In this document: piece after piece, positions 18,780 to 64,000 of the stretch
Layout: each line of letters opens with the position of its first letter
How positions within the stretch are numbered: position 1 is the stretch's first letter
NCBI GenBank assembly: GCA_030704615.1
Contig: CM060732.1
Span: forward strand, 37,944,001-38,008,000
Length of the DNA stretch: 64,000 nucleotides
Source of the DNA: Takakia lepidozioides
Taxonomy: Eukaryota; Plantae; Bryophyta
Reading direction: 5' to 3'
Program-made: the position numbers and the translations under genes
Notes under the pieces: generated by a model
The model's database searches: none
Seen by the model: the letters and a program-made list of their open reading frames with translations, nothing else
What the model was told of the DNA's origin: nothing

Positions 18780-18860
18780 TCCAGCAAAGTCGATAGCATT
18801 CTATGCTCGAACTGCACCAGAAATGGGGCAGTAGTGTGCTCACAGTGTGAGGGGAACGGC
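18780..18860 (+). pseudogene. Captured DnaJ-type zinc-finger fragment (BSD2-like)
   Basis: SKVDSILCSNCTRNGAVVCSQCEGNG shows CxxCxGxG repeats; partly shared with copy A (~15548-15590). Confidence 0.6.
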
Positions 18861-19227
18861 CTCGGGAACCTGTAGATAACCAGGGAACAGGAACCAAGAC
18901 AAATATTTTTATTTTTATTTTAAAAGAGTTTTCTTTGTATTTGTTGTCTTATTATAAAATATAAAAAAAGGGGGAAAGAAAAGAAAAATGTGTTAGGTTT
19001 AAAGAGCCTGGTTGGTCATATCTTTGTCAAATGAGCTCCGTTTGACTCAGTTTTTGGGGGGATAGCTGCAGAAAGGGGATATCTACCTACCTAGTTTTTG
19101 TTTTTGGGACTCTGCTAAAAATCTATGGAATTTTTAGAGTGTGAGTGTGCCGTGAAAGATCCACAATTCTGTTTCTAGAACCTGTTCTGGTCTATTTGAG
19201 AGACAAATCTGTGGATGTCCTCCTTGT

Positions 19228-19833: not shown

Positions 19834-22089
19834 TGTGTAGGAGGGAACTCCAGAAGATCTCTGACCCAGTGGCAGGGCCAAAGACTCCCTGGGGGCACCA
19901 CCAGTATTTTTACTGCAAGGAAGCGGCAGACTACCTATATTGTGAAACCATGGAAATCAACTAAAAGTGTGTTTTTTCTTCCCCAATTCCCTTGAGATTT
20001 TATAGGCAGCTACAAGGCATCTAATTATAATTTTTCACCAAGTTTGGGGATTTTTGGAGGTGAGGAAAGATGGCATCAAATTATCAAGCCGGAGGCAGTT
20101 GCGAAAGGCGATTAAATGGAATTCTAGTTAATCCAATGGATGAAAACTGGAAATTCGACCTGCAAGCTGGATGGATGAGAAGACAACCTAGCGCCAAATG
20201 GTCATCCATTGGATGGATGAAAAACCAGATTTATCATTAACACCAAGGTTTTCCATCCATAGTTATTATTTTATGGTGTTCTATCGTTTTTAAATTATAG
20301 ACTCATGTAGGAAATAATAGTTTAAGACTATCCTTCACTAGTTTAAGAGGCCCCAAAACCACAATAAAAGAAGAGCAGGCTCCTCTTGTTCTTTCTCTAG
20401 TCTCATTTCTTTGTTTTGGCCTCTTGCTTGTGTAGTTAGTTTTGAGCTTGAGGGAGCTAGATCCTAGAGGGTTGAGCTTGTGGCTCTCTAGTAGTAGAAG
20501 CAAGCATAGTGAGAGCAGGATAGTCCTAGGTCAAGGCCTTGTGGCCATTTGAGACAAGAAGTAGAGAAAGCGCTCCATGAAGTGAGAGACTTGAGGACGA
20601 GTTGGAGTGCCGGAGGAGGACTAGATTTGAGTACCATGCTACCGAGCGATTTAGTGCATCCCAAACACCACTTGTTTCAGAGGGTGACTTACCATATTAT
20701 CTTGACCTTTAAATTCATTTGTTTCATTTGTTGTTCAAGCTTGTTCCAAGAAGGGACCTTATAACATTGCTTGCTAGAAATCTATAAAAACTAACCCTCT
20801 TTCAAAGAGGATGTGTGTGCATCTCTATGTGCATGTGTGAAGAGCACAGGTGTGAAGCCCCAAGAGACAGGGCCTTAGGAATCTAACCCAATTACTTCAT
20901 GGAAGTGAGGTAGATGTCAATTATTATGTTTAAGGAGAGGGCGAGCTTACATGAAGTGGCGAAGCTCTTGTCAAATTTCCCTTTCTAGCTTAGTGACAAC
21001 GGCCATATTGCATGAGACGACGAAGCTATTGCCAAAATTTCCAAATTATTAAGTTCATATCTATGTTCATAAGCCCCCTGGCCATAGAGGACCATGGGAG
21101 GCAGTGCTAACTAGCTTTATAAGTGGTTAAGCTATTTTGTAAAGTGCCGGCGCCTTAGGCTGGAGGTCAACCAAGAAGGTTGCCTAGATTTGCCATGGAA
21201 AGGCCCATCTAACACTGGTGGCCAAGAGAAGTTTCTTTCTGCTCCTCCTCCACATCATGCAAGCGAGTGTCGGGTCGAATTTGTTCCAGCTTGGCGTCTT
21301 GCCCTTTGGAAGAACTTTTGGCACAGCCTGGCCATTCGGGATGTCGAGAATAACAATGTCAGCCGCAAATGTTTTCTGCACACCGCACGCGAAGGTGGGA
21401 CCAGTGCTCACCTGCAACAGACATGTTTATTTTAAGAACGATGGCAAGAATGTTTTCAAAGAACCAAACTGAAATACTGCCAATGAAACTTACAGATAAA
21501 AAGGAAAGAAACTTGAATTCTCACCAGATTGAGGAATGAGATTATGTTGTCCAAGGTAGGCGAAGGCACCCCAGTGTATCATCTCTTTCGACTCTGCATC
21601 ATCGCCAGCCAACCCTCATTGACAATTTTAATCTCTCCTGCCGAATCAGAACGGGAAGGGTGTGGCTTGGCATCGAACACGCACTGAACTGTGCGGGTAT
21701 ACCGTCCAGCAGTGATGTCCTGCCCACTCTTCTTTTCCTTCTTCATCTCCTTTTCTTTCTCCTTCCCCTTGTCCTTGGACTTGTCTTTGTCCTTTGGCTT
21801 TGCTGGTGAGATAGCTATGACATCAGGAGCCTTGTCTTTTGGTTTGCGCCCCGCCTTCTTGCCCTTCTGCGGCGTTCCCTGAGCATCAGGCTCCTTGGCA
21901 GCCAATGTTGCTATGTTTCTTTGGAACTGCTCGTCAGTCAGAGGCGCCAGCATTTCAGCATTATTGTTCAAATATTTCATGTGCTTTTCTTGGAAGGTCG
22001 TGTGCTCCGGTGGGCAGTCAAGGTACCAGCCACAGTCTCTGAAGTGAGAAGGACTCCAGTCCTTCAATATCCCTGCAGTGTACATGGTT

Positions 22090-24150
22090 GGATCGTTTGG
22101 TTGAACGAGATGTGGTGTTGTGGAGTGCGATGATTGCATGATATGCACAGCAAGGGTGCGGGATGGAGGCTTTGCAAACCTATAAGCAAATGATGTGCAA
22201 AGGGGTGAAGCCCAACCACATCACATTTGTTTGTGTTTGCAGTGTGTGTGCAAGCCTGGCAGCTCTGGAAAAGGGGAAAGAGGTCCATGGCGACATCGTC
22301 AAAGCTGGAATTGTACCAGATGTCATCTTGAACACTGCCCTGGTGGACATGTATGCCAAATGTGGGTGCATTAAGGATGCGAAGGGAGTTTTCAAGACTA
22401 TGGCTGAATGAGATGTGGTGTCATGGAACTCAATGCTTGCAGGGTATGCACAACAGGGGCGTGGGATGGAGGCCTTGGAATGATGTGCGAAGGGGTGAAG
22501 CCCGACCACATCACGTTTGTGTGCGTTTGCACTGGGTGTGCAAGCCTGGCAGCCCTAGAAAAGGGCAAAGAGGTGCATGGTTGCATCGCCAAAGCTGGAA
22601 TTGTACCAGATGTGATTCTGAACAATACCCTCGTAGACATGTATACCAAATGTAGGAGCATTGAGGATGTGGAGGGAGTGTTCAACAATATGGCTGAATG
22701 AGATTTGGTGTCATGGAACGCCATGCTTGCAGGATATGCACAGCAGGAGCGCGAGATGGAGGCCTGGGGGAAGGGTGAAGCCCGACCACATCATGTTTGT
22801 GTGCGTTTGCAAGCCCAGCAAAGAGGTGCGCCATGGTGACATCATCAAAGCTGGAACTGTACCAAATGTCATTCTGGACGTTGCCCTGATGGACATGTAT
22901 GTGAAATGTGGGTGCAGTGAGGATGCAAAGTGAGTATTTGACAATATGGCTGAATGAAATTTGGTGTCGTGGAATGCGATGATCGCAGGATATGCCCAGC
23001 ATGGTTGTCATAGGGAGGTCCTGCAACTATTTGAAGGAATGCAAAAGAAAGGCTTGAAGCCGGACAGTATCACCTTTATATATGTTCTCTCTGCATGCAG
23101 CCACACTGGCCTTACTGAAATCCAGATGTTGTGGTGTGGAAGGCTTTGCTTGGTGCCTGCAGAATCCATGGCAATGTGGAGATGGCTGAACGTGCGGCAA
23201 TATCTATCATCTAGTGGGATGAACAGGATGGCGCGACTTATGTGTTGCTATCAAACATCTATGCCGCAGCTGGCAGGTGGGATGATACTGCAAAGGTGAG
23301 AAGAATGATCAAGGTCAGAGGGGTTAGAAAGGAGTCAAGAGCCAGGTCGTTGCTGCATTGAGGTTGGCAACAGGGTGCACACCTTCATTGTAGATGACAA
23401 GTTGCATCCCAGAAACATCTATGCCGCAGCTGGCAGGTGGGATGATATTGCAAAGGTGAGAAGAATGATCAAGGTCAGAGGGGTTAGAAAGGAGCCAGGA
23501 GTCAGGTCGCTGCTGCATTGAGGTTGGCAACAGGGTGTACACCTTCATTGTAGATGACAAGTTGCATCCCAGAATTAAGGAAATCCATGCTGAGCTGAGA
23601 AGATTGTCTGGGCAGATGAAAGAGGCGGGGTATGTGCCTGACACGCGCTTTGTATTGCGAAATGGGGGAGGAGGAAAATGAGTTTTCTCTTTGCCACCAC
23701 AGTGAGAAGCTGCCAATGGTTTTGGGCTGATCAGCACGACCCCTAGGACGCCTCTCCGTCTCATCAAGAATCTTCGAGTGTGTGGTGACTGCCACACCTC
23801 CACCAAATTCATCTCAAAGATTGTTGGCCGAGCAATTTTTGTATGGAACGCTAACCGCTTTCACCACTTTGATGATGGGATTTGTTCTGGAGTGCGATGA
23901 TTGCAGGATATGCTCAGCATGGGTCTGGTAAGGAAGCTTTTGAGATCTATGAGCAAATGCTACAGGCAGAGGTGACCCCTGATTTGGTCACCTGGCAGCT
24001 CTGGAAAAGGGTAAAGAGGTGCATGGCAGCAATTGTACCAAATGTCATTCTGAACAATACCCTCGTGGACATGTATGAAGGGAGTGTTCGACAATATGGC
24101 TGAACAAGATGTGGTGTCGTGGAGTGCGATGATTGCAGGATATGCACATC
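22090..24150 (+). pseudogene. PLS-class PPR-E-DYW pseudogene cluster
   Basis: Repeated DVVSW/AGYAQ/KPDHITFV/ACASLAALEKGKEVH/NTALVDMYAKCG motifs. E domain (LSNIYAAAGRWDD) is duplicated. DYW remnant at ~23630-23890 ([28 protein letters not shown]). Many stops and indels. Confidence 0.92.
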
Positions 24151-30722: not shown

Positions 30723-31424
30723 TTAATGTTGTTTTGGAAATGGCTCAATTCTTCGATTGTTTATGCAATCTCTCAAGTGGGTTCTCATGGTGGATGTTGC
30801 GTATCGGGAATGTGCGGGATTTAATCCGAATGCTATATCCGTGGCATAAGCTATTGCAAATACGCCACAGGATGAACAGTCAGTCTGTTGCATGACATCG
30901 GCATAGATATAATTGAAGTGTGGGACTGGGATTAATTTCGCGAGATGTTGTTCTATTTCGGTCGGTAGCTTCTTATCCGCGGGCATGCTGGAATCAAACA
31001 CCGTACATTGATAATTCGTTTCGTTCGGAATTATCATTGTTAGAATCCAATGGTTGTTGTTGACGAACACGTGCTGCAAACACTTCTTGGTGTATTTCGT
31101 TCTGCCCAGTAGAGTCGAATACGCATGTTGTTGGTAGTTTTGTGTTTCCAGTTCTTGATCAAATAGTATTTGCATCCCGGCCGCCAAATGCTGGTCACAC
31201 AACCATCCATTGTCATCCAAGATGATTTGATCGTCGTGCGCCGTCAAGAGGAGATCTTCGTGCCAATATGTTTCTTGGCGGAAATCTGTGTTTACTATGT
31301 CGGATTGTTCGTCTTCGGAATCGATTTCTATGATTTCGAGTGGTGTGGGAGTTAATTCTGAGCAAGTTTGGTTTTCATATGATAATATCGGTGTGGGATG
31401 TTCGGCTTCAGAATTGGTTGGCAT
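30723..31424 (-). CDS. Ulp1/C48-like cysteine peptidase, Helitron-associated
   Basis: WLCDQHL, VNNNHWIL (His), VFDS (Asp), QQTDCSSCGVFA (Gln/Cys); lies just 3' of the helicase remnant. Confidence 0.75.
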   Translation of the reverse strand: MPTNSEAEHPTPILSYENQTCSELTPTPLEIIEIDSEDEQSDIVNTDFRQETYWHEDLLLTAHDDQIILDDNGWLCDQHLAAGMQILFDQELETQNYQQHAYSTLLGRTKYTKKCLQHVFVNNNHWILTMIIPNETNYQCTVFDSSMPADKKLPTEIEQHLAKLIPVPHFNYIYADVMQQTDCSSCGVFAIAYATDIAFGLNPAHSRYATSTMRTHLRDCINNRRIEPFPKQH

Positions 31425-31559
31425 TTTTTATTTCTCCGTACGTGTGTCTTGGTTGGAGCGTTTTGGCGGCAAGGTTTGTATTCACCGTGCTGATGTGTTC
31501 CGTGGTCTTGTGTGATTTTTGTTTTTGGACATTACAATCGGCTTGTGGAGCCATGAACT

Positions 31560-32060
31560 CTAGTGAGTCTGTCTGAATTTGGCTCCTTGGATGTCGTCGA
31601 ACTTAATATCCCGAAGTGTTACTAATCCTTGTAGGGAACACAAACGAGACAGTGTGACGTAAATGTTGTGCATGTTCAAGAGGTGTCCATTTGGTGGTTT
31701 TTGCAAGTCGATTATTATCCTGTCGAAAGTTTTGCCTTGGCCTTTGTAGTCGGTTAGGCAGTATGCGGGTATCAGAGGCAATTGGGGTCTGCTGATTTTG
31801 AATTTCTTTGGTTTTTTCAGTTCATCCTCCGTGTGGTGATAATCGAACGTTCTCGAAATGGGTGTGATGGGCACTATGTTTTCTGGGAGATTTTCTAAAT
31901 TTATGTTGCTCAATGTTTGGTGTTGACTGATGAATGCCCCGAAATCGATTAATACGTGATTTGGCGGGTGCATTAAATTTTCTTCCCGTACGATCCAATC
32001 ATATTCTGTTGTCGAGATCCCCACTATTTGTCCGACTGCACCGTTTACAAGCCCCAATCT
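31560..32060 (-). pseudogene. Helitron PIF1-type helicase, C-terminal part
   Basis: GLVNGAVG, QLPLIPAYCLTDYKGQGKT, YVTLSR. Confidence 0.9.
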
Positions 32061-32074
32061 AGGATACGAATACG

Positions 32075-33389
32075 AGATCTCAAGCTAAATTTGTACACAT
32101 CATCGTGAACGCAGTTTTCAAATACCTACTACGTGTCAGAGAGACCGCCAAAACTTCCACAACAAATACAGGAGTACTTGGGAACATTAACACATATTAC
32201 GGTTGTTACGAAACGGCGAAAAATGGTTCACTTCACATACACACATTGTTATAGCTAGAAAATGCCCCAAATCCAAACGAACTCGTACAAAAACTGAAAG
32301 ACGACGAAGAATTCAAACGAAAAATGTTGGCATATTTGGACAACATCATAGTACGCGACTTGATCCAATTCAAATCCGAAATATCGGTTGACGACAACAT
32401 TCCAACCACTACCATTGACCCCGACATGGAAGAAAACAATGTAAACACTGAAATCCATCCGTGCACTACCAGACCTCCCGATGTTCTCTCTAAAACATTT
32501 CATACCGACTTTGCGCGCGACGTCTTGAAACTACTGAATGTATGCAATCGCCATGTGTGCAATCTCGCGTGCTACAAAACCAACGAAGAAGTTTTAAAAA
32601 AGAATTGTAGATACGGATTTCCCGCTGTCTTGGTTGAAGAAACGCATTTCGACGACGAAACTGGGCTGTTGCACATAAAACGAACCGACAGATGGTTGAA
32701 CAACGCAAATCCATGGATGTTAGTATTAGGAAGATGCAACCACGATTTGAAGTTTATCGGTGCTTCAGGGAAAGACGCAAAGGCACTGATATACTACATC
32801 ACGGATTACATCACAAAATCTTCCGTCTACACATCACACAAACTGAAAACAGGTTTCTACCAATGTCCGGCACGTGCATAACGTTATGTAGAACCGCTGT
32901 GTCCCGCTCTTGCAAATAGCCGTAAAAAAAATCCAAACGACTTATGACGATCTATATTCCGAACATTCAGTCGACAAGAACCGGAAATTGTTGATTCGAT
33001 GTTTGAACACGATTGGATCCCAACAAGAGATATCGGTAACAAGAGCAGTCAACATGTTGAAATATCCAGACCATTTGACAGACCACCAGTTTGCATATCT
33101 ACCGTGGTATAGTTTATCAGCATGGATCCGTGAACAAGAACAATTTCGATCGAACGAAGATGGAAACAACGATCTAAACAACACACCTGACGATAACGAC
33201 CCCGAAAACACATTCGAAACGTTCAAAGTCGAAAGATCCGAACATAACGACAAATTGATTATGTATAATTTCCGCATCGACTACCAAAGCAGGCCACACA
33301 AGTTCGGGGAAATGTCACCTTACAAGTTCTGCAGCAAATCATGCAAGCTGAAAAACCCGTACTATTACAAATTCGTGCATGAATTATGA
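32075..33389 (+). pseudogene. Helitron Rep domain fragment (opposite strand to the helicase)
   Basis: NRHVCNLACYK...CRYGFP, WLNNANPW, RCNHDLKFI, YYITDYITK (two-tyrosine motif), QQEIS; frameshifts. Confidence 0.85.
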
Positions 33390-42300: not shown

Positions 42301-43499
42301 GCTTGTTATTGTGGACCTTTTTGTAGATTGTGACATTCATCTGTATGTGTTGTTCCAACATATTCATTGTCTCTGCCTTCTTTTTTGAAAGACTACCAGC
42401 CACAGCCATATTTGATCAATCATATAAATAAACTATAATATGCATGTACATGTACAATCAATCGAAGAGATGGGTCCAGTTCGGTGCGAGAATGTTATGT
42501 AGCTTTGATTTTGTGTCTAATCAACTTGAACATCATCATCCGGAGCTTCTTCATCCTCATCAAGCTGCAAATTTTCTTGGTCATCGGAGTCATCGTCATA
42601 AATGGTCCAGCCCTCAAAAAACACCTTCGAATCATCGTCCACCTTGTTGTCAATGGCCGTGTCTTCGTCTCCTTCTCCAACATCCGTATCTTCTGGAGCT
42701 TCATCATATAGGGTCCATGATACATTGTCCGAGGCGTCATCATCCTCTTCTACCCCCTCTACCCAAACTTCATCATCAGCATCATTATGACCAGTCTCTC
42801 CGTCCACCGCAATTGCCTCACCCAATGGAGATCCGAGACCATGATAGATACGTCTTCCTCTTGGCTGAGCATGCACAACCACCTTCCAATTTGTCGAGCG
42901 GCTTTTACTCACCCATCCCTTCGCTATCCGAGGTGGAAACTCCAAGATAGAAGAGTTGGATATCTCTAAGCACTCAGCCCGCTCAGAACAATCAGTCATG
43001 ACCTACAGCTAGTGAATCATGGTTGTGCTTCCTATTTGTATTCCTTCTTGCCTTCATGTTATCAATTTATCTTACCGTGTATACTGAAGCATCAGATTGC
43101 TCCAGTATCTACTAAGTTCCAATTAATCATGCATTTATTCCACAACTTCTCTCGTGTCTCTATACACAGTATGTTTGTATCGATTCAGTATCGGATTAAG
43201 ATTAATCATGTATCATGCCTATGCCATGGTGTCTCTATTCTACCCTACTGTATAATTTTACAGCTTGCATGAACTAAACCTCATTCAAGTCATCATCTCC
43301 TCTTCACTGTTTTCCGCTCTCCGTTACGTCTCTTCCTCCCCTGAACAAATCGTCTTCCTCAAGAAGTGGTCCATTCCTTTTGCCGTTCTGCCTAATCTAC
43401 CCGCAAGCTGTTCTAACAACCTAACTAACTAACCATCACCCCTGAAGTAATACGTTCCCTCTGCAGATGTCGTTCCCTGTCAATGATAACTGTTCCTCA

Positions 43500-43670
43500 T
43501 GTACTGTGACACGCTGTGTCAAGCTGTACCGAGCTGTGACTGGCTGTGTAAAGCTGTGTCGGGCTGTGACTGGTTATGCAAAGCTGTGTCGGGTTGTGTG
43601 AAGCTGTGTCGGGCTGTGACTGGCTATGCGAAGCTGTGTCGGGCTGTGTAAAGCTATGTCGGGCTGTGTA
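43500..43670. repeat. gctgtg-type tandem minisatellite
   Basis: aagctgtgtcgggctgtgactggct repeats; a similar ctgtg array lies at 48060-48182. Confidence 0.8.
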
Positions 43671-43789
43671 ACCCCCCTAAAGCCTGCTTCTGCCACCCCT
43701 AAGGCTCATGTTGGTCTCAGTCTGCGCAAAAATTAAGGGTACCCCACAGAACCCGTAAAAGCATCTAAGTCCCAAGCAGCCCTCTAACA

Positions 43790-52558: not shown

Positions 52559-53010
52559 TGTCAAGTTAAATAAGCACAGTGTGAAAACAACTAGAATAAA
52601 ACTAGTTATTTGTATTTAACACTTGGATTTAGGTCAAGTGTTAAATCAGGTGTCAAGTTTAGTTTTGACACCTGGTCTGTCTTATCTTCACGAGAGCGGC
52701 AGTCGCGCAGCTCATCTTTCTCGAGTTGAGCCTGCGCGACCGAGCTCCTGCATGTGTTTAGGTTTTAGTGTGCTTATGTAGGGATACAGGTTGTTGTGGG
52801 GTGGAGTCCCCATAGCTTGGGGTGCCCCTGGCTCGACTTCAGTTTCAATGAGTGATAGCGATGGATTTCATATTTCTTGTGTTGGAAGTGTATGTCCTTT
52901 TTAGCTTTGTTTATCACTCGAGAGAGATCAGCTTGCATTGTCAGTGCTAGATGTGAGTTTTTAGTTAGCACTAGTATACTTGTTTTTGTTTCAAAGCTTG
53001 TTTGAGAGCT
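52559..53010 (+). repeat. Conserved hairpin-rich terminal/leader region (LTR or part of it)
   Basis: Shared with 13393, 16902 and 63977; stems at 52614-52646, 52647-52674 and 52702-52740. Confidence 0.85.
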
Positions 53011-53974
53011 GGTGAAGTGGAGAATTATGTAATCCATATATATATCTGTCGAGAACAGAATGCTTTGCTTTGTACAAGGTTGTTGGAAGGGGCTGAACTG
53101 AGAAGCCCATATTGTTGAAAGAAGGTATTGCTTCCCGTAATATAGGTTAACCGGTGCATTGCCGGACACTGAAGGTCGAGCAGGTTCAATCTTCACCATG
53201 GGGGCCGGTCCAAGTACTAGTGGCATCTGAAATCACCGAGTCGAGCACAAGTAGAAGCATGTATTGGGGCTAGTGAGGCCACGAGAATGTAGAGCAGGCG
53301 GTGACAGTGTGCGGAACTGCTACCTGGGCATCGTGTTGGATTGCACGTCATCAGCCAATGCGTGCAGATGTCGATTGTACTTATTGGTGATGTAATGCGT
53401 CAACTCTTGAGCAATATCATTTCACTGGGACGTCTCTATCACTGCGATTTTCTTGTGGAAACAGGGTAGAGCTTTGTATTATTCTGATTTTCACTGCATC
53501 GGGTGTATCATTCGGGGAAGCTGGAAGATTCCCGCCCTTCTTCATGCCTGCTAGGCTCAGGGTGGAAGGTTCAAACTACTGCGGGCTACTGATCTGGATA
53601 GGTATACAGAGGGGCAGCGATGTAGCTCAAAGGAAAGAGGAAGCGTCGCTGGCAGTTTCATAAGAGATCGGTGACCTGCATTTTATTTCAGGGCAGACAT
53701 GACTTATCCATTGGAGCTTGGTAACCTATGCAACTGCCAGAGCAGGAAGCGGTGCCGGCTTTGTCTTGATGAATCCGTGACTCGAGAATCGCTGGAAGAT
53801 AAGCTTACAGGGAGGTAATGCTGAGGCTGTGGGCAAGGAGATGGCGAACGCTGTGAATAGTATGTGACTGGATCAACTCGGTTGGTATCTTAGTAAATTG
53901 ATTAGCAGCAAGGTGTAAAGATAAGGGATAGTCAGTAGAGTGGATGGGCAGACTGTGCTGCTCCAGGGTAGCAA

Positions 53975-54100
53975 GCGGTGCTGCACTGCTTTGATACTCT
54001 GCATAAAAAAAAGGGTCTTGAATGCAAAGGTACCCAACCAAGGAAGCCAGCCAGTTGGGTTAACAATTACTCCCAAATGTACCGTGCGAGAATACAATTT
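53975..54100 (-). pseudogene. Captured pectin methylesterase C-terminal fragment
   Basis: [29 protein letters not shown], then YAEYQ after a frameshift in an A-run. Confidence 0.75.
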
Positions 54101-54167
54101 CCAGGGTCGCTCCAGATACGTTGGGAACTGGTCTGAATTCTTTGTGAGTTGGGTTGTTCCACCGAAG

Positions 54168-54395
54168 GCGGAGTTGATCGGATATTCGGCAGGTGAGACT
54201 AGTCTGTTCCTGGTTTACGAGTTGGTTGAGAAGGGAGCTCTCACCGATCGTCTTCATAACGCTGCTGCAAATGGGCATCGGCCATTACCGTGGTCAGGCA
54301 GAGTGCAGATAGCCTTGGATGTAGCGAGGGGGCTGGAGTACATCCACGATTACACCAAGGCCCACTATGTCCACCGTGATGTCAATTCTGCTCGA
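54168..54395 (+). pseudogene. Captured LysM receptor kinase (LYK-type) kinase-domain fragment
   Basis: [29 protein letters not shown]...[33 protein letters not shown]. Confidence 0.85.
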
Positions 54396-55024
54396 TGGCC
54401 TCTTCCGTGCTAAGGTGTTCATCTGACACAATGTGAGAGGGAGGGGGCAGGGTGGGGGGCTAGCTAAGAAGACATGATCAGTACAAACGACCGAAGCAGT
54501 TGCTTGAAGGGGCTCCATTGATTGAACAAATCACGCAGTTAAGACAGGATCTTGGGCATTAGGCCATCGCTGTTTGGAGTGGTATTCGTGACGCTTGGCA
54601 CCAGACTGCGAAGTTTTCTTTCCTACACCGACCAGTAGCAAATCCCCGACTCCCAGTTTTAAAGCTCCTGCATATGTAGAGATCCGTCCTCGGAATTACG
54701 GGTATTCGCATGAAACATGTAGGGTACGCCAAAAATACTTGTATTTATTGAAATACATTTGGAGCTTTGCTTTGATCCAATTTAAATTATACAGAGCCTG
54801 TTTTTGCCATAACTTGGTCATACAAAGGCTGTTTGACCTCAAATTTGCACAGGGACCTACAGAAAGGGGAAATCTACCTATCTAAACCTGGTTTCTGTTT
54901 TGGGGACTCTGCTAAAAATCTATGGAATTTTTAGAGTGTGAGTGTGCCACGAAATATCCACAATCCTGTTTCTAGAACCTGTGCTGGCCTATATGAGAGA
55001 CAAACCTGTGGATGTACTCCCTGT

Positions 55025-55774
55025 ATGGCTGGGGGAAATGAGGATGTAATTGAAGGGCAGGTCTCTTCTCTTAGCCTGTGCACACAAGGGGACAGGATCT
55101 ATGTTTCCCAAGGAACTCAGACTGATTTGAGTGGAGAACAGTTGGACGAGTTGATTGCATACTGGGAGTCAGGCATTAGCAGTAGACAACAGACTGCTGT
55201 AGTTGGCATTGAGGGCCTCAATATCGCCTTGGACAGTCAGAACTCTGTTGGAGCCAGCAGTTCTGCAGCTGTAGGTGAAATACCAAAGTGGGTGAAAGCT
55301 AGGCTTGGAACACAGCCAAAGACAGCACCGGGGACCAAGGTGTTCAGCCACAAGGCCGTGGTGTACTGGAGCAGAGGAGCAGGAGCTGCACAAGTTTGTG
55401 CAATTAGACAGTGTTGCAGTCGGACACGCGCTGCACAAGGCAACCACGAGCGGGGGTTCATTAGCGAGGACAAGTTTGTTCTGTTTGAAGGCGATGCAGT
55501 CATTCGCAATGAAGACACCCGCAACCGTCTCAAAGCTTTCGAGTTGAGAGACTATCAGACCCTACCTTTGTTTTCTTTAGTGTTCAGTGAGCGGGAGATA
55601 GCAGAGTGTTGCTTTGTCTCTACCTGGCAGAAAGAGGAGGAGGGTTGGTTAGAGCGAGCTACTGTAGCTTGGGACAAGGTTAGTGGCAGGTTTCTGGACA
55701 TAGATATACCTCCTACACCTTACCATCAAGCAGAGCGAGGTACTTTGAGAGAAGTCTGGAAGTTGATAGCATAG
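55025..55774 (+). CDS. ORF-X, element-borne 249-aa protein of unknown function upstream of gag
   Basis: Open ATG-TAG frame conserved in three copies; no family recognised. Confidence 0.7.
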   Translation: MAGGNEDVIEGQVSSLSLCTQGDRIYVSQGTQTDLSGEQLDELIAYWESGISSRQQTAVVGIEGLNIALDSQNSVGASSSAAVGEIPKWVKARLGTQPKTAPGTKVFSHKAVVYWSRGAGAAQVCAIRQCCSRTRAAQGNHERGFISEDKFVLFEGDAVIRNEDTRNRLKAFELRDYQTLPLFSLVFSEREIAECCFVSTWQKEEEGWLERATVAWDKVSGRFLDIDIPPTPYHQAERGTLREVWKLIA

Positions 55775-56293
55775 ATCAGGATTAGATCTTGCTTGGGCGG
55801 GCTTCTATTCTTCCCCTCCATCTATGTACTATTTTCATTACCTTGTACTTGTAGTTGCCAAAGCCTCTCTTGGTGGAGGCCAGTCAGTCCGGGGTTTTGG
55901 GCTGGGATATTCTGCAGGATCAACATTGCAGCTGGATTTTGGTGTGGGGGTGTTGATGTTTTGATTTCTTGTGTTTGGATCCCCCCCAACACCTGCATGC
56001 TTGATTGTGCGCCATGTTGGTTTTGTGTGGGCGCTTGCTTTCATAGGGATTAGGCCGGATTTGATCACCGGTCAATCCTAGAGTATGCTGTCGGTGGTGA
56101 GGCTGGAGTGATGACCAGCAAGACCACCAGTGTTTCTTCTATGGTGAGGCTGGGTTGATGACCAGCCAACCATAGGAGTTCTTGCGGTGGATGCAGGTGC
56201 AGGTGCCCTGAGCCACTGGGATATGACCCTTAGACTGCAACAGGTGCCCACCCGTGTCACTATTAGATTAGTACTAGAGCCTTATAGTGTCAC

Positions 56294-58219
56294 GTGGAGG
56301 AGGTGCACATTGTGAGTGTCATTACGGAGTTACCCAAGGGTTTTGAGGGGAGTACGGCTACAGGCAGTAACAGTGAGAGTGGGTTCACAAGACGAGGTAT
56401 TCGGTTCAGACCACCTTCACCGCCACCCTCAATTACTGTAGAGTCAGACACAGGCTCGGAGGCTTCATCAACAGGTGTGCACTTTCATTCGCCATTGTTG
56501 TGGGACGACATGGAGGAGATGTATGGAGCTACCAAGGGGCCTCGTAGGTACTCTGGAGCTGTGGGCACAATCGAGTTGGATGACTTTATCCAGGAGTTCG
56601 ACAGCTGGTGTGATTTGCAGCAGATGCGCAATCCACATCTATTCACCCCATTCATGGCGTGGAAGGGACTGTTCCAACATTTGGAAGGCCCGCCTATGGA
56701 CGATTACCACGAGTTCAGGCGAGGACATGAAGCAGAGATTGAGGAGTGGAGGATGTATTGGTCACCTGACTACATCTCCATTACTCGAGGCATGACGCGA
56801 CCAGTAGCTGCATCAGTACCAATAGCTCCCACTGCCAGCACTAGTAGTGGAGCAGGTAGTGCTGGTACTTCTGCAGGTGGTACCAGTTCAGAAGGTGCTA
56901 CTACTCCTCCTGCCACAGCTACAACACATGTGCCTAGATTCAACCCGGTGGTGGAGTTCTTCCAGGAGTTGCGGAGGAACTACCAAGGTGTACGGACAGA
57001 GAAGCTGCGAAGTTTGCAAGACTTCCAGCGCAAACCCAGTGAGAGCCTGCGAGAGGCGTACACTCGTATGAGGCGCTTGATAAGTGTGACCCAAGGGGTT
57101 ACTGAAGCTCAGGCAATCCAGTTTTGGTATGGAATTCTGGACAAGGAGCTCAAGAGAAGGGTGCGAGATGCAACCCTGTTACAAGCAGCCCAACCCACAT
57201 TAGCAGATGTGTTTCTGCTGGCTGAGCGGATTGAGCTCAACATGGTGGAGGAACGAGTTGTTACAATTGGATTTGGCAAGGACATGCCTGTACGGGGCAC
57301 AGCTGTCAGCCCACAAGCACAAGGGACTGCCCAACAGCGTGGTCAGGGCGGCAAGGTTGCCCAGCCCAAGTTCCATGGAGCTTACAGGGGGCCTCAGGTG
57401 CAAAGGCCCGTGGCATCTTTTGCAGGCCAACAGCAACCAGGGGTGATATGTTGGACATGTGGAGGACCCCATGTCAAGAGAGATTGCCCAGAGAGTGGCA
57501 GAAGGCCGGCACAAGCACCGCCTGCACAGTTGCAGTGTGGGCATTGTGGCAAGTATGGGCATGGAGATGCCCAATGTTATGACTTGCATCCTGAGTTGCG
57601 CCCAGGCCAGTTCCAAGGGAACAATGGTGGCCGGGGGCGAGGTGGACCAGCCCAAAGAGGACGAGGTGGTCGGGCACGAGGTGCAGGCCAAGGGCAAGCT
57701 CCACATGGCCAAGGACGCGGAGGTCAGGGTGTTGACCAAGGCATGGCCAATCGGCTTCAGCAGCTAGAGCAGAGGCTCGCTGCCATGGCTATAGCTCAGG
57801 CGGTACCGGCTCCCAGGCGGGATGGTCCACCTCCTGCTCCTGAGGGAGGAGATATGGGAGGCATGGGATTCATGTGCGGAGCAGCACTACCACTAGAGCA
57901 AGTGGAGTCTGCTGCAGCCGTGACTCGAGGAGCAGCACGAGTTCCTGAGCCACGAGGTGCAGAGGTGGAGTTGGATCCACAACGTGGGGAGGCAAGCCGT
58001 CAGGCGAGGCTGCCTCAGTCATTCACCTTGGCGGAGACAGTGTCAACGCCATCCATGGCACCTAGTTCTCGCCCGACTGTTACCGAGGCGGAGGTTACTA
58101 TGCCATTGGGAAGAGCTACCCGTGCAGCACTGACACCTACTACCAAGCTAGTGCAGCCGGTGTGTTATTGGGAGCAGCCACCTCTGTGTGTCAAGCCCCA
58201 TTGTTCTCGGCAACCATGA
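56294..58219 (+). CDS. gag: Gag (capsid-like region, two CCHC knuckles, RG-rich tract); first in-frame ATG at 56510
   Basis: QRKPSESLREAYTRM (MHR-like), CWTCGGPHVKRDC, CGHCGKYGHGDAQC, GGRGRGG. Confidence 0.9.
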   Translation: MEEVHIVSVITELPKGFEGSTATGSNSESGFTRRGIRFRPPSPPPSITVESDTGSEASSTGVHFHSPLLWDDMEEMYGATKGPRRYSGAVGTIELDDFIQEFDSWCDLQQMRNPHLFTPFMAWKGLFQHLEGPPMDDYHEFRRGHEAEIEEWRMYWSPDYISITRGMTRPVAASVPIAPTASTSSGAGSAGTSAGGTSSEGATTPPATATTHVPRFNPVVEFFQELRRNYQGVRTEKLRSLQDFQRKPSESLREAYTRMRRLISVTQGVTEAQAIQFWYGILDKELKRRVRDATLLQAAQPTLADVFLLAERIELNMVEERVVTIGFGKDMPVRGTAVSPQAQGTAQQRGQGGKVAQPKFHGAYRGPQVQRPVASFAGQQQPGVICWTCGGPHVKRDCPESGRRPAQAPPAQLQCGHCGKYGHGDAQCYDLHPELRPGQFQGNNGGRGRGGPAQRGRGGRARGAGQGQAPHGQGRGGQGVDQGMANRLQQLEQRLAAMAIAQAVPAPRRDGPPPAPEGGDMGGMGFMCGAALPLEQVESAAAVTRGAARVPEPRGAEVELDPQRGEASRQARLPQSFTLAETVSTPSMAPSSRPTVTEAEVTMPLGRATRAALTPTTKLVQPVCYWEQPPLCVKPHCSRQP

Positions 58220-60495
58220 TTGCGACGCCGGGAGTGAGACCAGCTGCAGTGTTCAGACTAGCAGCAACACTCTGCGAGAGTGGAGAGGTCACTTCATCTT
58301 CTGCGGAGTTAGTGGAAGGTGTAGTGGCAGAGGGATCCTCGGATTTGAGGGTCAAGACTGCCACGGCAGCGCCCTGGCAAGCTGCAGCTGCCAGATTGAC
58401 GGAGCTGCCAGCTAGGCCAGCCATTGAGCGCGCCATGGTGACACCTGGAGTTGTCTTGTTAGACAACCAGGGAGGCATTTTCACTTTGAGTGGACCGGCA
58501 GGCAAGAAGTACCGGCCACTGCGGGTCTTGTTGGACTCAGGAGCTCAGCCACTGATGTTGGGCAGAGCTGCTATTGCAGGTTTGGGCCTCATGGAGGCGG
58601 ATATGGAGCCTTGTCCTTTCCAGATACAGACATCTCTGGGAGGATCAGAGCAGGCTCGCGGCATGACACGGCATCAGTTGGCTATTAGACTGCAGCCGGA
58701 TCATCCTGTAGATGGCTCAGTGATGCGAGCCAAGGCCATTGTGACAGACGCGGTCTCTTACGATGTCCTCGTTGGTGGGGCAGTGTTATACCCCATGGGC
58801 TTCACCCTGGATTTCTGGGAGGAGTCAGCATCCTACAGGCCTGGATGGCAGTCAGGGGATGGTCGCCGTGCACAGCTCCCTGTGACATTCATTGGGGGTA
58901 TTGCAGCTGCTCAGCGGGGCAAGATGCCAACACTAGCCGCCTTCACAGCTGCAGTTAGTTGGCCTGGAGAGTTGCTGGAAGGCAATGCCCATGCAGAGGA
59001 TGTGCCACCTCCAGCAGAGCAGGATGACATGCATGGTACGGCGGAATTGCCTGCCATGGTTGCTCACACTCCGTTGTGGGGTACGAACAAGGATTTGCAG
59101 CAAGCTGCTGATGGACGGGTGCAACAAGCTTGGGTAGAAGCTTTTGTACCGTCAGGAGAGGAGGAGAGTGCGGTGATTGCACCAGGGCCACCTCAGTTGT
59201 CGCCATTGGACACCACACCTCTTGTGTGGCAGCGGCCGGATGAAGGCATTTGCCTTCTGGACTTGTTTGGCGGGATCAGCACCGGATTGGCTGCTGTGCT
59301 ACAGGCAGGTGTGCGGGTAAGGCGTTACCTGTATGTGGAGAGGGATGAGACTGCACGACGCGTCTCACTGCGCCATGTGGCTCAGATGGTGCAGCAGCAC
59401 CCTGAGTTGTTGCAGGTGTCTGCAGTTCGTGGATATCAGCAGGCCTTGCCAGCAGACATTTCGTTGCTGGGGGCGCAGGATTTGGAGCGGGTTGGCTCCA
59501 TTGATCTGGTAGTGGCAGGTTGGCCCTGCCAAGGGCATTCATCAGCCGGGCATGGCAATGGATTGCGAGACTCGAGGACGGGTCTGTTTTGGGAGATGGT
59601 GCGGATTTTGCGCCACTTGCAGCTTCATCAGGCTGTATCTCCGGCATACATCTTGGAGAATGTGCCACTGATGGGTGATTCTCGGGCCAGGGTGATGGCC
59701 AGTGTGCATCAAGTCCGGTCGTGGCTTGGGTCAGCAGTATTGCTGGATGCAGCTGCAGTGGGGTCACGGGCTCATCGTCCACGACTATGGTGGACTAACT
59801 TGATGCCACCCGCACTGCTCAAGCGTGCATTTGATGGGGTGCAGCGGCCAGCACACCTCACCGTGGATGGCATTTTGGACACAGGAAGGCAGTCTCAACG
59901 TGTGAGACACGATGACCGTTCGCCTTTGGCAGTGGTCAACAGAGTGGGTCAACCACGAGCAGCATTACCTACACTGCTCAGCTTCCCAGGATCCCATGCT
60001 TTTCGGGATGGTGGACCTGGCCTCCTGTGGGATGCTCAGTTGCAGCAGTTAGTGGAGCCTAATGCCGACGAGCGAGAGCGGGCTATGGGGTTTTCCACTG
60101 GGACCACGGCGGTGCCTTCCCTTTCTGACGCATCACGTCGTCAGGTGTTGGGGCAAGCAATGGATCTCAATTGCTTGACCTGGATTGTCAGCTTGGCTAT
60201 GGCTGAGCAACGTAGAGTGCGGAGTGCACTTCCCTTGATGGTCTCTCTGCCTACCGAGACGGTACAGGCAGCGAGTGGGGGCGAGCCGGTGAGGACCACG
60301 AGGTGTAGACATCCATGGCACATGTGGGAGGTGCTCGAGGTTCAGAGGGAGTTGGCAGCGAAGGCAGCTGTGATGGATGAGGTTGGGGATTCTTCTCGGG
60401 ATGAGGAGGTTCTCAATGATGAGATGATGGGGCAGGATGAGGCCTTGTCATTGACTGAGCAGGAAGGGGGTACTGCTCAAGAGGTTGCAGCATAG
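58162..60495 (+). CDS. Aspartic protease plus DNMT3-like C5 cytosine methyltransferase
   Basis: LLDSGA (DSG at 58534). MTase motifs: I LDLFGGISTG, II YVERD, IV VAGWPCQ (PC at 59524), VI ILENV (59656), VIII AHRPRLWWTN, IX ERERAMGF, X RRQVLGQA. Confidence 0.95.
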   Translation: MLLGAATSVCQAPLFSATMIATPGVRPAAVFRLAATLCESGEVTSSSAELVEGVVAEGSSDLRVKTATAAPWQAAAARLTELPARPAIERAMVTPGVVLLDNQGGIFTLSGPAGKKYRPLRVLLDSGAQPLMLGRAAIAGLGLMEADMEPCPFQIQTSLGGSEQARGMTRHQLAIRLQPDHPVDGSVMRAKAIVTDAVSYDVLVGGAVLYPMGFTLDFWEESASYRPGWQSGDGRRAQLPVTFIGGIAAAQRGKMPTLAAFTAAVSWPGELLEGNAHAEDVPPPAEQDDMHGTAELPAMVAHTPLWGTNKDLQQAADGRVQQAWVEAFVPSGEEESAVIAPGPPQLSPLDTTPLVWQRPDEGICLLDLFGGISTGLAAVLQAGVRVRRYLYVERDETARRVSLRHVAQMVQQHPELLQVSAVRGYQQALPADISLLGAQDLERVGSIDLVVAGWPCQGHSSAGHGNGLRDSRTGLFWEMVRILRHLQLHQAVSPAYILENVPLMGDSRARVMASVHQVRSWLGSAVLLDAAAVGSRAHRPRLWWTNLMPPALLKRAFDGVQRPAHLTVDGILDTGRQSQRVRHDDRSPLAVVNRVGQPRAALPTLLSFPGSHAFRDGGPGLLWDAQLQQLVEPNADERERAMGFSTGTTAVPSLSDASRRQVLGQAMDLNCLTWIVSLAMAEQRRVRSALPLMVSLPTETVQAASGGEPVRTTRCRHPWHMWEVLEVQRELAAKAAVMDEVGDSSRDEEVLNDEMMGQDEALSLTEQEGGTAQEVAA

Positions 60496-63400
60496 CAACC
60501 ACGGGACGCGTCCTCTACCTCTAAGCCCACTGGACTTAAGGTTGCAGTTACGGAGGACAATTGGGAGCCTGATATTGGACCCATTGTCACCGGAGGAGAG
60601 AGACGACGTATACGGCGGTTCCTGAGGGCTTACAGGAATTGCTTTGCCTTCAGTTTGAAGGACTTGGGAGCACTGAAGGGTCAAGAGATCCGTATTGAGT
60701 TGGCCACTGACACGCCAATCTTTCGGAGACCCTATAGATACAGTGACATGGAGAGGTCTTTGATTCAGATGAGGACTCAAGATCTCTGGGAGGCAGGTTT
60801 GGTGGAGCTCTCTGGTGGAGAGTATGCTTCAGCCACAGTGATGCCAGCTAAGAAGGATGTCTATGGCAATTGGACGGAGAGACGTATGTGCGGTGATTAC
60901 CGGCCTGTAAATCGTCAGACCAAGTCCGATAGGTATGCCATGCCAACACCAGAGGAGATCTTTGATGCCATTGGGCATTCCAAGGTCTTTAGCACGTTGG
61001 ATTTACGATCCGGATATCACCAGTTGCCGATCAAGGAGGCGGATAAGCAAAAGACGGCATTCTGGGGGATCAATGAGCACGGGAAGGATTGCCTATACCA
61101 GTGGCGGTTCTTACCATTTGGGCTTAAAAACGCTCCCGCTGAGTTTCAAAGAGTCATGGACAGGATTCTAGCAGGGGTGGAGTTTGCTCGGTGCTACATA
61201 GATGACATCATCATCTTTAGTGCTACGGTGGAGGAGCATGAGAGACACCTTCAGGGGGTATTTGAGCGCTTGAGGACGCACGGATTGAAGTTACATCCGG
61301 GCAAGTGCAAGTTTTTCCACAACCAGATTGAGTATCTGGGTCACATGATATATCCTGGAGGATTGGGGGTACAGCAGACTAAGGTAGAGTCCATTGCACA
61401 GGTTCCACGCCCCACGGATGTGAGCCGAGTTCGAGCTTTCATGGGGTTAGCAAACTATTACAGACGGTTTGTTAAGGGATTTAGTGCCATTGCAAAGGCT
61501 CTAACCAAGCTGACCAAGGTGGACCAGGAGTGGCAGTGGGAAGATGAGCAAGAACAAGCTTTTCAAGAGCTCAAGGCGAGGTTGACCTCGGCGCCCATCT
61601 TGAGACGACCTATCAGGGGGCGTCCTTTTCAGCTGCATACAGATTGGAGCATGCTGGGGCTTGGAGCGGTGCTCACACAGGTGGATGATGAGGGAAGAGA
61701 GTTCGTAGTGGCTTATGCTAGCCGCTCGAACAATGCTGCAGAGTCTAAGTATAGCTCATATGAGGGAGAATGCTTAGCTGCAGTGTGGGCCGTGGCACAC
61801 TTCAGGTGCTATTTATACGGCAATCTCTTCACCCTTGTCACGGATCACCAACCACTCAAGTGGTTGATGGAGTCAGACAAGCTTACGGGGAAGCTTGCAC
61901 GGTGGGCACTCATCCTTCAAGAGTATGACTTTCAGGTGGTGCATCGACCGGGTTTGGTCAATCGAAATGCAGATGGGTTGAGTCGCAATCCATGCACGAG
62001 CCAGCAGGATGACACTGGAGCTCGGTGGCATGGTGAGACGGACGAGGAGATGGTGCCCGGATGGCATGCATCTGCATTTCTGTGTATCTTGGCAGCGGAA
62101 GGCCAGGTTGGACCTACAACAGGGATGACTGTAGATCAAGTGTCTGAGGACCCTGAGGCCAGCAATGAGCAGGGTGGCGCCAAAGATATACATGAGGATT
62201 CAGTTGTGTTGGACTACCTCCGCAGTGGAGACACGGCAGCCACTATGACTGCCAAGGAGAGGGATCGGATCCTACAACGAGCCAAGAGGTTCAGGTGGGA
62301 GGGGACACACCTGCTCCGAGTGTGGGAGGATGGTCGAGTGAGGATTGTGCCTCACCCAACACAGCGGGCACGGTTAGTGCGGCATGCCCATGAGGAGTTG
62401 GGGCATTTTGGGGTGCGACGCACTCATAGTCTACTGCAGGGGCAGTATTGGTGGCGTGGTATGCACACAGAGGTACAACACTTTGTGGCTAGGTGCATGG
62501 TGTGTGACAGGGTGCGTGCTTCATTCAACGCCCCTACTCCACAATTGCACCCTCTTCCGATCATGGGATTGGGCTACAGGTGGAGTCTTGACTTCGCAGG
62601 GCCGTTGCCACTGACCATGCGCCACCAACAAGTACGTGTTGGTGATGGTGGAGCACTTCCCAAGTGGATTGAATTGGTTCCATTGCCTGATAAGGCTAGT
62701 GAGGGAGCTGCGTATGCATTCCTGGATTGTGTGCTTAGCCGATTCGGTGCTCCAGCTGAGGTACTCACGGACCAAGGGAGAGAGTTCTTGGGGGAGTTTC
62801 AGGCTTTGTGTGACAAGGCCTTGATAGACCACCGCACCACTTCTCGGGATCATCCTGAAGCCGATGGCTTGGCAGAGAGAGTTGTTCAGACAGTAAAGAG
62901 GGGTTTGCGCAAGTATGGCTTGCAGAAGGGACACCTAGGAGATTGGGACCTTCAGTTACCCTGGTTAGCCATGGGCTACAGGTTCAGCAAGCAAGCATCA
63001 CTTGCCTCCTTCTCACCATACTTTCTTCTCTTTGGCCGAGAGCCGGATTTGCCTACATCCATTCGCAGAGAAGCTGCTACAGTTCTTAACCTTGACGATC
63101 CGGACGTGTGGGCACGTGCATGTGAGCAGCGTGCAGAGTTGTTCAAGAGAGTCATGCCTATGGCTTTCGAGAACCTTGCCATTGCACAACACCGTGATAC
63201 GTTGAGGTATGCTACCATACGTGGTGGGGGCTATCGTCCTGGGGTTCGGAGATTCAACCCTGGTGACTATGTCTATCTGCAGCAGACTGCTCCTACGACC
63301 CTGGATGTGACTGCAGGACGTGTTATTTTGAGGGTTCGAGAGGTCTTGCCCTCAGGCGTCTTGGTCTTGGAGGGTCGGGATGGCATCACTTGGAAGGACC

Positions 63401-63630
63401 ATGTGCGTAATTGTGCGCCATGTCACCTTCCGAATGTCGATGGCAGGATTGACCCAAACCTGGCAGTGGTATCTGCAGGTTTGAGGTGCATGTTGTGTGG
63501 GTCTGCTAAAGGGGCAGCCACCATGCTGGTATGTGATCGGTGCTCTAGAGGTTGGCATATGGGATGCTTGACTCCACCTCTTGAGATGGTTCCGGATGGG
63601 GATTGGTTATGTCCACATTGCATTGGATAG
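60496..63630 (+). CDS. pol: Pol: RT - RNase H - integrase - PHD finger, in frame with the upstream ORF after a single TAG
   Basis: DLRSGYHQ, LPFGLKNAP, YIDD (61195); HTDWS, YEGECLA, TDHQPL, NADGLSR; HHCC, WSLDF, LTDQGREF, GLAER; C4HC3 PHD at 63487-63621. Confidence 0.96.
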   Translation, partial: QPRDASSTSKPTGLKVAVTEDNWEPDIGPIVTGGERRRIRRFLRAYRNCFAFSLKDLGALKGQEIRIELATDTPIFRRPYRYSDMERSLIQMRTQDLWEAGLVELSGGEYASATVMPAKKDVYGNWTERRMCGDYRPVNRQTKSDRYAMPTPEEIFDAIGHSKVFSTLDLRSGYHQLPIKEADKQKTAFWGINEHGKDCLYQWRFLPFGLKNAPAEFQRVMDRILAGVEFARCYIDDIIIFSATVEEHERHLQGVFERLRTHGLKLHPGKCKFFHNQIEYLGHMIYPGGLGVQQTKVESIAQVPRPTDVSRVRAFMGLANYYRRFVKGFSAIAKALTKLTKVDQEWQWEDEQEQAFQELKARLTSAPILRRPIRGRPFQLHTDWSMLGLGAVLTQVDDEGREFVVAYASRSNNAAESKYSSYEGECLAAVWAVAHFRCYLYGNLFTLVTDHQPLKWLMESDKLTGKLARWALILQEYDFQVVHRPGLVNRNADGLSRNPCTSQQDDTGARWHGETDEEMVPGWHASAFLCILAAEGQVGPTTGMTVDQVSEDPEASNEQGGAKDIHEDSVVLDYLRSGDTAATMTAKERDRILQRAKRFRWEGTHLLRVWEDGRVRIVPHPTQRARLVRHAHEELGHFGVRRTHSLLQGQYWWRGMHTEVQHFVARCMVCDRVRASFNAPTPQLHPLPIMGLGYRWSLDFAGPLPLTMRHQQVRVGDGGALPKWIELVPLPDKASEGAAYAFLDCVLSRFGAPAEVLTDQGREFLGEFQALCDKALIDHRTTSRDHPEADGLAERVVQTVKRGLRKYGLQKGHLGDWDLQLPWLAMGYRFSKQASLASFSPYFLLFGREPDLPTSIRREAATVLNLDDPDVWARACEQRAELFKRVMPMAFENLAIAQHRDTLRYATIRGGGYRPGVRRFNPGDYVYLQQTAPTTLDVTAGRVILRVREVLPSGVLVLEGRDGITWKDHVRNCAPCHLPNVDGRIDPNLAVVSAGLRCMLCGSAKGAATMLVCDRCSRGWHMGCLTPPLEMVPDGDWLCPHCIG

Positions 63631-63976
63631 TGGGAGTGGATACAACCATGGAGGCTAACAAGAAACGCAAGGCCCAGCTACTAGGAGACCTTGAACACAC
63701 GAGATCTTGGCTCAAGTTCATAGATTGCAAGACGGCGACTAACGATGGGGCTACTCTTGTACCCGGCCTCTTGGTTGATAGAGTTTGAGCACGATAAAGA
63801 CAGTGATAGAGGACTTAGTACGGCTGTGGCTATTACATCTTGTAGCTATCTGGAGGTAGAGGGACCTATCCACCAGCTAGGGGGGCGATTGTGCTAGACT
63901 ACTTTATTGTGCATATATGTGTGGTGTGGTTTGGACAGCGATGTAGTTGTGTAGCGATATGTATGCGCACGACAGC

Positions 63977-64000
63977 TGTCAAGTTAAATAAGCACAGTGT
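63977..64000 (+). repeat. Start of a fourth TGTCAAG terminus (3' LTR or next copy)
   Basis: tgtcaagttaaataagcacagtgt is identical to 52559-52582. Confidence 0.9.

Follow-up and report, generated by a model that had tools for sequence, protein, structure and literature searches.

Gypsy retrotransposons that carry a DNMT3-type DNA methyltransferase have been described from the alga Klebsormidium nitens, where KnitGypsy-Dnmt3 has DIRS-like repeats and its acquisition was placed in the K. nitens lineage (De Mendoza et al. 2018, PMC5890265; here and below, papers are cited for the parts that were accessible). KnitGypsy-Dnmt3 gave no methylation in yeast, a result that its authors call inconclusive, DNMT3B having failed as well, and the K. 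nitens methylome is ordinary and plant-like (PMC5890265). In Symbiodinium, the DIRS-borne Dnmt3 domains of SymbioDIRS-Dnmt3 methylate CG de novo (PMC5890265). The name Gypsy-DNMT3 was used again in a preprint that places it in streptophytes only (bioRxiv 10.64898/2026.05.21.726589), and a further paper, citing the 2018 work, also gives retrotransposon DNMT in streptophytes only (PMC12344493). Here, we describe a Ty3/gypsy retrotransposon that encodes a DNMT3-like C5 cytosine methyltransferase (DNMT below) and lies in a stretch of 64,000 nucleotides catalogued as Takakia lepidozioides (assembly GCA_030704615.1, contig CM060732.1, positions 37,944,001 to 38,008,000). We call this whole stretch the window. 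The element runs on the forward strand, as do all of its features given below, from 52559 to past the window end at 64000. We conclude that a land-plant branch of Gypsy-DNMT3 is real and well supported.

The Gypsy-DNMT3 lineage in land plants

The element has the order Gag, protease, DNMT, reverse transcriptase (RT), RNase H, and integrase, which is the Gag-protease-RT-RNase H-integrase order of Ty3/gypsy elements with DNMT set behind the protease. The gag frame (56288..58219) has its first Met at 56510 and two zinc knuckles (57449 and 57536); its tail past about 58146 is out of frame. Protease and DNMT share a stop-to-stop frame of 809 amino acids (58066-60495), as seen from the open reading frame list and from motifs. 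The retroviral-type aspartic protease (DSG; 58441..58890) was recognized by the motif LLDSGA at 58528 and is 50 to 64% identical in relatives, its Pfam match being weak (E 0.004, under the curated cut-off). RT, RNase H, integrase, and a C-terminal PHD finger occupy 60496..63630 by Pfam. The integrase has rve and H2C2 domains, and Pfam gave no match to a tyrosine recombinase, which sets the element apart from DIRS elements.

The Klebsormidium protein KFL_013780020 (P0487) is collinear with the window element over protease, linker, and DNMT (31% over 569 amino acids, E 1e-60). Its neighbor KFL_013780010 (P0176) holds the RT, and the window, Klebsormidium, and Closterium elements fall in one RT clade with a support of 0.95. 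Because the protease-DNMT region is collinear with the Klebsormidium protein, we assign the window element by sequence to the same Gypsy-DNMT3 lineage and not to a new capture. The two share gypsy domains, an unpermuted intronless Dnmt3, purifying selection, and a DIRS-like repeat layout. The window element differs in its land-plant host, in its very high abundance, and in a conserved stop that separates DNMT from RT; the 2018 paper puts DNMT in the Pol frame (PMC5890265). The accessible text of that paper does not mention a self-priming site, junction palindrome, target duplication, or PHD finger for KnitGypsy-Dnmt3. The DAM-LTR/EpiLTR elements (bioRxiv 10.64898/2026.05.21.726589) are also retrotransposons with a DNA methyltransferase, but theirs are DAM or DNMT4-like domains and not DNMT3-like ones.

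Of 7,995 candidates scored in a search with the protease-DNMT protein, 70 matched, and named ones come from Marchantia, Calypogeia, and Sphagnum. Among metagenome stretches, 599 matched; confirmation left 96, from which the best 80 were taken as loci. Most of the 80 show the same domain order, and their main family groups with Sphagnum proteins. Further named relatives, found through DNMT or RT parts, are from Riccia, Coleochaete, Closterium, Klebsormidium, Tetraselmis, Chromochloris, Monoraphidium, and Tetrabaena, so that streptophyte and chlorophyte algae are both represented. None of the named members with DNMT in these word-limited searches came from a fern, lycophyte, hornwort, or seed plant, which is a weak negative. 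In both trees (DNMT and RT; FastTree, with weak deep nodes), the window is sister to a group of Marchantia, Calypogeia, and Sphagnum or Sphagnum-like sequences. At 69% identity, a Coleochaete RT polyprotein is also close to the window, and thus the element alone does not prove the host lineage. Throughout the clade, the end of the integrase retains a PHD finger.

The position of DNMT varies among the more distant relatives. In a large sister clade (P0081, P0085, P0097, P0099, P0196, and many of P0348-P0491), whose named members are Chromochloris, Monoraphidium, and Tetrabaena proteins, the same DNMT lies between RNase H and integrase; in Tetraselmis and Closterium it lies 5' of RT. The module is therefore present in green algae other than the published Klebsormidium case. 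Two other database entries stood out. P0214, a distant gypsy polyprotein with a PHD finger, carries PF05869 (Dam-type adenine methylase), which fits the DAM-LTR preprint, and P0250 (CAA9586175.1), a clade member labelled uncultured cyanobacterium, probably stems from a plant or alga whose DNA entered a metagenome bin.

The element belongs to a large family in its host, and that family keeps its DNMT. Summed contig depth, which is not copy number, was 19,500 to 24,000 over DNMT in X1, compared with 6 to 11 in the low-copy stretch of the leader, and 740 to 1,060 compared with 4 to 9 in X6. DNMT depth was about equal to RT depth and 100 to 2000 times that of the low-copy stretch. X1 and X2 are one sample, possibly the window's own source. 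A full-text literature search, with most subscription papers and bioRxiv supplements outside its reach, found no report of land-plant copies, of the stop, or of the priming site, and the accessible parts of bioRxiv 10.1101/363937 and PMC12885004 hold nothing on transposon DNMTs. The conserved DNMT/RT stop, the likely self-priming site, and the split ends with target duplications are thus unmatched in the searchable literature. An earlier reading of this DNA, made from its letters alone (the sequence-only reading), knew of no such elements in embryophytes, and our search agrees with it.

The methyltransferase and the stop codon behind it

The DNMT domain (59242..60204) contains motifs I to X of C5 methyltransferases, unpermuted: LDLFGGISTG (59257), YVERD (59332), GWPCQ (within 59503-59541), LFWEMVRIL (59584), ILENV (59650), AHRPRLWWTN (59770), ERERAMGF (60070), and LGQAMD (60148). 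Pfam PF00145 matched with an E value of 8e-13, one of the checks that the sequence-only reading had proposed. The best solved-structure matches were DNMT3A/B (E 9e-11 by single sequence), and a profile search favored DNMT3A/B (E 5e-25) over the best DRM-type plant enzyme (2e-10), HhaI (1e-7), and DNMT2 (2e-4). The predicted structure had a pLDDT of 94, and its top Foldseek match was DNMT3A (E 7e-20). By sequence and predicted fold, the domain is of the DNMT3 type and not a DRM. Two statements of the sequence-only reading are borne out in this way: that the main motifs stand intact and in canonical order behind a retroviral protease and that the enzyme resembles DNMT3 and not the permuted DRM. 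Among the 144 new proteins in the best 150 of a representative search, all of which carry the DNMT domain, no host DNMT3 was identified; therefore, no outgroup tree of DNMT was possible. The profile used there also covers the RNase H and integrase positions, and its 727 matches at 1e-30 are not DNMT counts.

The catalytic residues are strongly kept. In 92 aligned domains, the catalytic Cys is present in 85, the ENV Glu in 90, and the two RxR Arg residues in 81 and 82. Between the window and 11 loci, pN for DNMT was 0.17 to 0.21 at a pS of 0.71 to 0.76, compared with a pN of 0.15 to 0.24 for RT (8 loci) and 0.27 to 0.32 for protease; these comparisons are between families, with synonymous sites saturated. 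The values indicate that the DNMT domain is under purifying selection and is conserved as strongly as RT.

These data bear on the idea that DNMT was captured just once and evolves neutrally, that it is an artefact of assembly, or that the contig is algal. The low-copy host-gene scraps in the leader of the window copy and the closeness of the Coleochaete polyprotein would suit it. However, the same architecture recurs across many species and loci, selection is purifying, and depth is high. Against an algal contig stand the tree position next to the liverwort and Sphagnum group and the DYW and E+ PPR fragments in the window; DYW, E/E+, PPR, P450, and TAXi-type protease fragments, all found there, are what we take to be typical of land plants. 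Neutral capture and artefact are refuted, and we consider the idea as a whole very improbable. The sequence-only reading had named a single copy, neutral evolution, and a source outside land plants as the findings that would overturn it. We found a highly repeated family, RT-like constraint, and a land-plant context, though the host lineage is read from broken gene fragments.

DNMT and RT are not in one open frame: a TAG (60493-60495) lies between them. The sequence-only reading had placed DNMT between protease and RT of a gypsy element; that order stands. In four runs, at a 3% threshold, no variant was listed at 60491-60502, whereas 60464, 60469, 60489, 60490, 60503, and 60513 vary. A stop is present in 63 of 71 related junctions (38 TAG and 25 TAA), the other 8 being gapped or unlike; these loci are redundant and do not represent 63 independent events. 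The stop site is common to at least three families with unlike flanks, and CAA directly follows it in 46 of the 63. The TAG that ends the DNMT frame is thus, by these comparisons, a conserved family trait. We dropped the explanation that it is a nonsense mutation, given that host copies have no listed variant of it and that relatives have a stop at the same place. Among database proteins, 48 with protease and DNMT end without RT (a redundant set that includes two gene models that continue) and 23 are fused to RT; of the latter, three land-plant entries are gene models with shortened linkers. The Klebsormidium pair is also annotated as two genes. For Marchantia, the protein ends are seen at the protein level only.

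The window sequence TAG CAA CCA (60493..60501), a context shared by 3 of the 1,487 TAGs in the window, is a predicted readthrough site. UAG-CAR-YYA is the tobacco mosaic virus (TMV)-type, or type I, readthrough signal, with 6 to 10% readthrough in Arabidopsis (PMC2754532), and a second source likewise gives the CARYYA context as a TMV-type signal (PMC2194720). The window has the same in-frame UAG followed by CAA-YYA; it differs in that the predicted site lies between a methyltransferase and RT. Stop-codon readthrough is also the strategy of the retroelements SIRE1 and RIRE2. No RNA structure downstream of the stop and shared between families was evident in two folds, made without shuffles. Since the conserved stop stands in a TMV-type context, RT and integrase are quite likely made via readthrough at TAG-CAA-YYA. 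With such readthrough, DNMT would be at Gag-like abundance.

RT and integrase might instead come from splicing across the stop, from reinitiation, or from an internal promoter, which we judge unlikely. Ogre elements splice across a stop, and the public gene models P0004, P0008, P0009, and P0031 run from DNMT into RT through a shortened linker, but the modelled junctions differ among themselves. The Sphagnum-like family has an in-frame ATG after the stop, as reinitiation would need; in the window, however, there is no ATG before residue 85 (60496 onward), which is well inside sequence conserved among relatives. Readthrough of the in-frame stop of yeast Tca2 was not detected (PMC2194720), which also speaks for this alternative. 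Against it, intact loci have RT in frame with the stop, and the codon after the stop is CAA. The X5 contig, which we guess to be RNA, crosses the stop without a gap and was counted neither for nor against expression or splicing.

Ends, priming, and a proposed role for the enzyme

The element does not have two equal long terminal repeats (LTRs) as simple terminal direct repeats but a DIRS-like split layout. Related loci (L007, L008, L041, L046, and a second family) read A-coding-polypurine tract-B-A-B. The window reads A...B-A up to its end, and host contigs join A to B. The 5' repeat A (52559..52916; starts TGTCA, ends TCA) marks the left element end. Its start is the same in copies at 13393, 16902, and 63977, and its end was set from primer-site pairing and from a contig joint (52915->63888). 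A polypurine-tract-like motif (63873..63887), also found directly 5' of B in 6 loci, leads into repeat B (63888..63974; ends CGACA), which matches B of related loci and is found behind A in other host copies. A second repeat A (63977..64000), cut by the window end, is identical to 52559-52582 in 24 of 24 bases. The B-A junction forms a 10-bp palindrome (63971..63980) that is perfect in L001 and L008 and has one to two changed bases in L007, L041, and L046. We dropped two other interpretations, that 63890 starts an ordinary 3' LTR and that the TGTCAAG repeat is a nested element, since related loci show the B-A-B layout.

The 12 bases directly 3' of A (52917..52928), a predicted primer-binding site that lacks a tRNA-type TGG start, pair with a predicted self-primer within A (52714..52725). 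Pairing was 11/12 in the element and 12/12 in the copies at 13393 and 16902, compared with a maximum of 10/12 for 2,000 random 12-mers. Pairing also holds at the corresponding position in 8 of 14 loci of the Sphagnum-like family, where the sequence itself is different. No tRNA-type primer site was found by eye; no tRNA scan was run. From the pairing, reverse transcription is likely self-primed. Self-priming Tf1/Sushi, Tcn1, and TAR elements likewise have a primer site that pairs with their own repeat (PMC6317226). Compared with these and with Phygy, the window element has no chromodomain, has split repeats, and carries DNMT. Phygy, a described moss non-chromovirus clade, has an NCGN target preference (PMC6317226); the three target duplications that we saw do not fit NCGN.

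Those duplications come from relatives, the right end of the window copy lying outside the window. Four family-1 loci hold both outer ends and represent three insertions, each with a 4-bp target duplication (L013, L028, and L041=L046). The ends are of the TG...CA type, one start being mutated. SymbioDIRS-Dnmt3 is also a retrotransposon with a DNA methyltransferase and an A-coding-B-A-B layout, but it has a tyrosine recombinase (PMC5890265), where the present lineage has a DDE integrase and 4-bp duplications. Retroviral integrase cleaves circle-junction palindromes. The polypurine tract marks the start of B and the primer site the end of A, and so the functional LTR may be B+A. The cDNA would form a circle, which integrase would insert by way of the palindrome within the LTR; a two-LTR circle of B+A units opened at its inner palindrome would give the observed A-coding-B-A-B. 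We regard this route as plausible, at slightly less than even odds. L013, L028, and L030 end in a single B (A-coding-B), with intact 4-bp duplications in L013 and L028; such elements are either one-LTR-circle insertions or deletions between two B copies.

Taken as a whole, we read the locus as a Gypsy-DNMT3 element with a stop-controlled DNMT and a readthrough RT, whose packaged enzyme would methylate the element's own new DNA. We give this reading a probability of about 0.6. The main product would be Gag-protease-DNMT3, and occasional readthrough would yield RT-RNase H-integrase-PHD. The protease would free DNMT inside the particle, and the packaged enzyme would methylate the new cDNA or its circle. 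That this cDNA or circle is the substrate, methylated to pass as host chromatin or to be damped on arrival, seems to us slightly favored. DNMT is retained in two polyprotein positions across green algae and plants, and its retention also at the RNase H/integrase position in chlorophyte-type relatives is in keeping with a function linked to the particle and its DNA.

Several observations weigh against this reading. The algal homologue gave no methylation in yeast, which is negative but inconclusive (PMC5890265). The full CARYYA hexamer is present in just 8 of 63 loci, the largest family has CAA CCC and then an in-frame ATG that would allow reinitiation, and some relatives are without the stop (P0232, P0093). 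Related loci are mostly decayed and redundant, with 3 of 35 full-length domains stop-free, and the mean dN/dS among decayed loci is about 0.5 for DNMT, protease, and RT alike. The CpG observed/expected ratio in the element (0.45 to 0.61) is not below that of the rest of the window (0.58) or of other elements (0.32 to 0.57), a comparison that we judged uninformative. None of 13 5' A copies is preceded by B, and the circle model does not explain why the form A-B-A-coding-B is missing.

Some of these points would suit a domain kept for a noncatalytic job (DNA or RNA binding, or particle structure) or one that methylates RNA. The inactivity of the algal homologue in yeast, inconclusive as it is, and the lack of extra CpG depletion agree with this, and abundance on the level of Gag would go well with a role in structure or binding. 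However, the catalytic Cys, ENV, and RxR are near-invariant clade-wide, and related DIRS-borne Dnmt3 domains methylate CG de novo (PMC5890265). We find such a role improbable. We think equally little of the possibility that host chromatin is the main target of DNMT, either in or around the insertion site, with the PHD finger of the integrase as guide, or in trans across the genome. The clade-wide finger resembles those of CHD4, KDM5-PHD1, PHF21A, and UHRF1, which read unmethylated H3 tails as the ADD domain of DNMT3 does, and DNMT adjoins integrase in chlorophyte-type relatives. In the window lineage, however, the stop and the RT-RNase H region part DNMT from integrase, and the K. nitens methylome is ordinary and plant-like (PMC5890265). 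We keep methylation of the element's own new DNA as the preferred reading. A wider picture is tentative and rather unlikely in full. It would comprise a green-plant-wide clade with DIRS-like replication and a DDE integrase, using self-priming, a two-LTR circle, and palindrome insertion, in which the leaky stop of land-plant members loads DNMT3 at Gag-like numbers and new copies arrive methylated.

The window copy, its surroundings, and significance

The window copy itself is defective. Its gag is off the protease frame by one base near 58146, where the X5 and X6 contigs differ from it at full depth and those of X1 and X2 at about a tenth of a local depth that is itself low; in relatives, P0001 and P0007 among them, a single frame spans Gag, protease, and DNMT. 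A compensating pair of one-base indels lies in the integrase core (62625..62659), as seen from contig comparison and from split tblastn matches in relatives. Because of this frame break and indel pair, the copy is likely nonautonomous. These defects, like the lineage shared with the algal element, the conserved stop before RT, and the split-repeat termini, had been overlooked by the sequence-only reading.

The leader of the window copy holds a low-copy cargo (52977..54770) with a protein-kinase gene fragment (53925-54413; Pfam E 1e-8), over which summed depth in X1 is 6 to 11, compared with more than 8,000 downstream. It is followed by an extra 279-codon frame of the host family (54935..55774), which has high depth and is repeated at 15918 and 19156. 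This frame had no Pfam match and is absent from the best 80 metagenome loci; a TraN-like identity was dismissed as chance, all Atlas matches being under 0.9. Two tandem derivative copies (13393-19833) have repeat A, the primer site, differing host-gene-like scraps, and then the 279-codon region, and in the first of them there are also inverted pieces of gag (16529-16677) and integrase (16678-16903). Together with 52977-54770, this makes three different cargoes at one leader position, which resembles a gene-fragment capture site. Elsewhere in the window are a 100-bp tandem array (2215-3300), a copia element (4135-7807), Helitron-like frames named by eye (30723-33389), and a 10-bp repeat array (43494-43683). 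Between 22000 and 29700, mixed fragments of PLS-type PPR, E/E+, and DYW lie on both strands among P450 and aspartic-protease (TAXi-type) scraps.

These data extend DNMT-bearing retrotransposons, known from a few copies in algae, to abundant families of mosses and liverworts, among the latter the genetic model Marchantia polymorpha. The use of a silencing enzyme by a transposon becomes testable in Marchantia, with its existing methylation mutants and long-read methylomes. Bryophyte annotations that include such copies overstate the number of DNMTs, and standard LTR finders probably overlook these elements. The split ends and target duplications point to an unusual integration route, and the conserved stop suggests that the element controls the dose of its enzyme.

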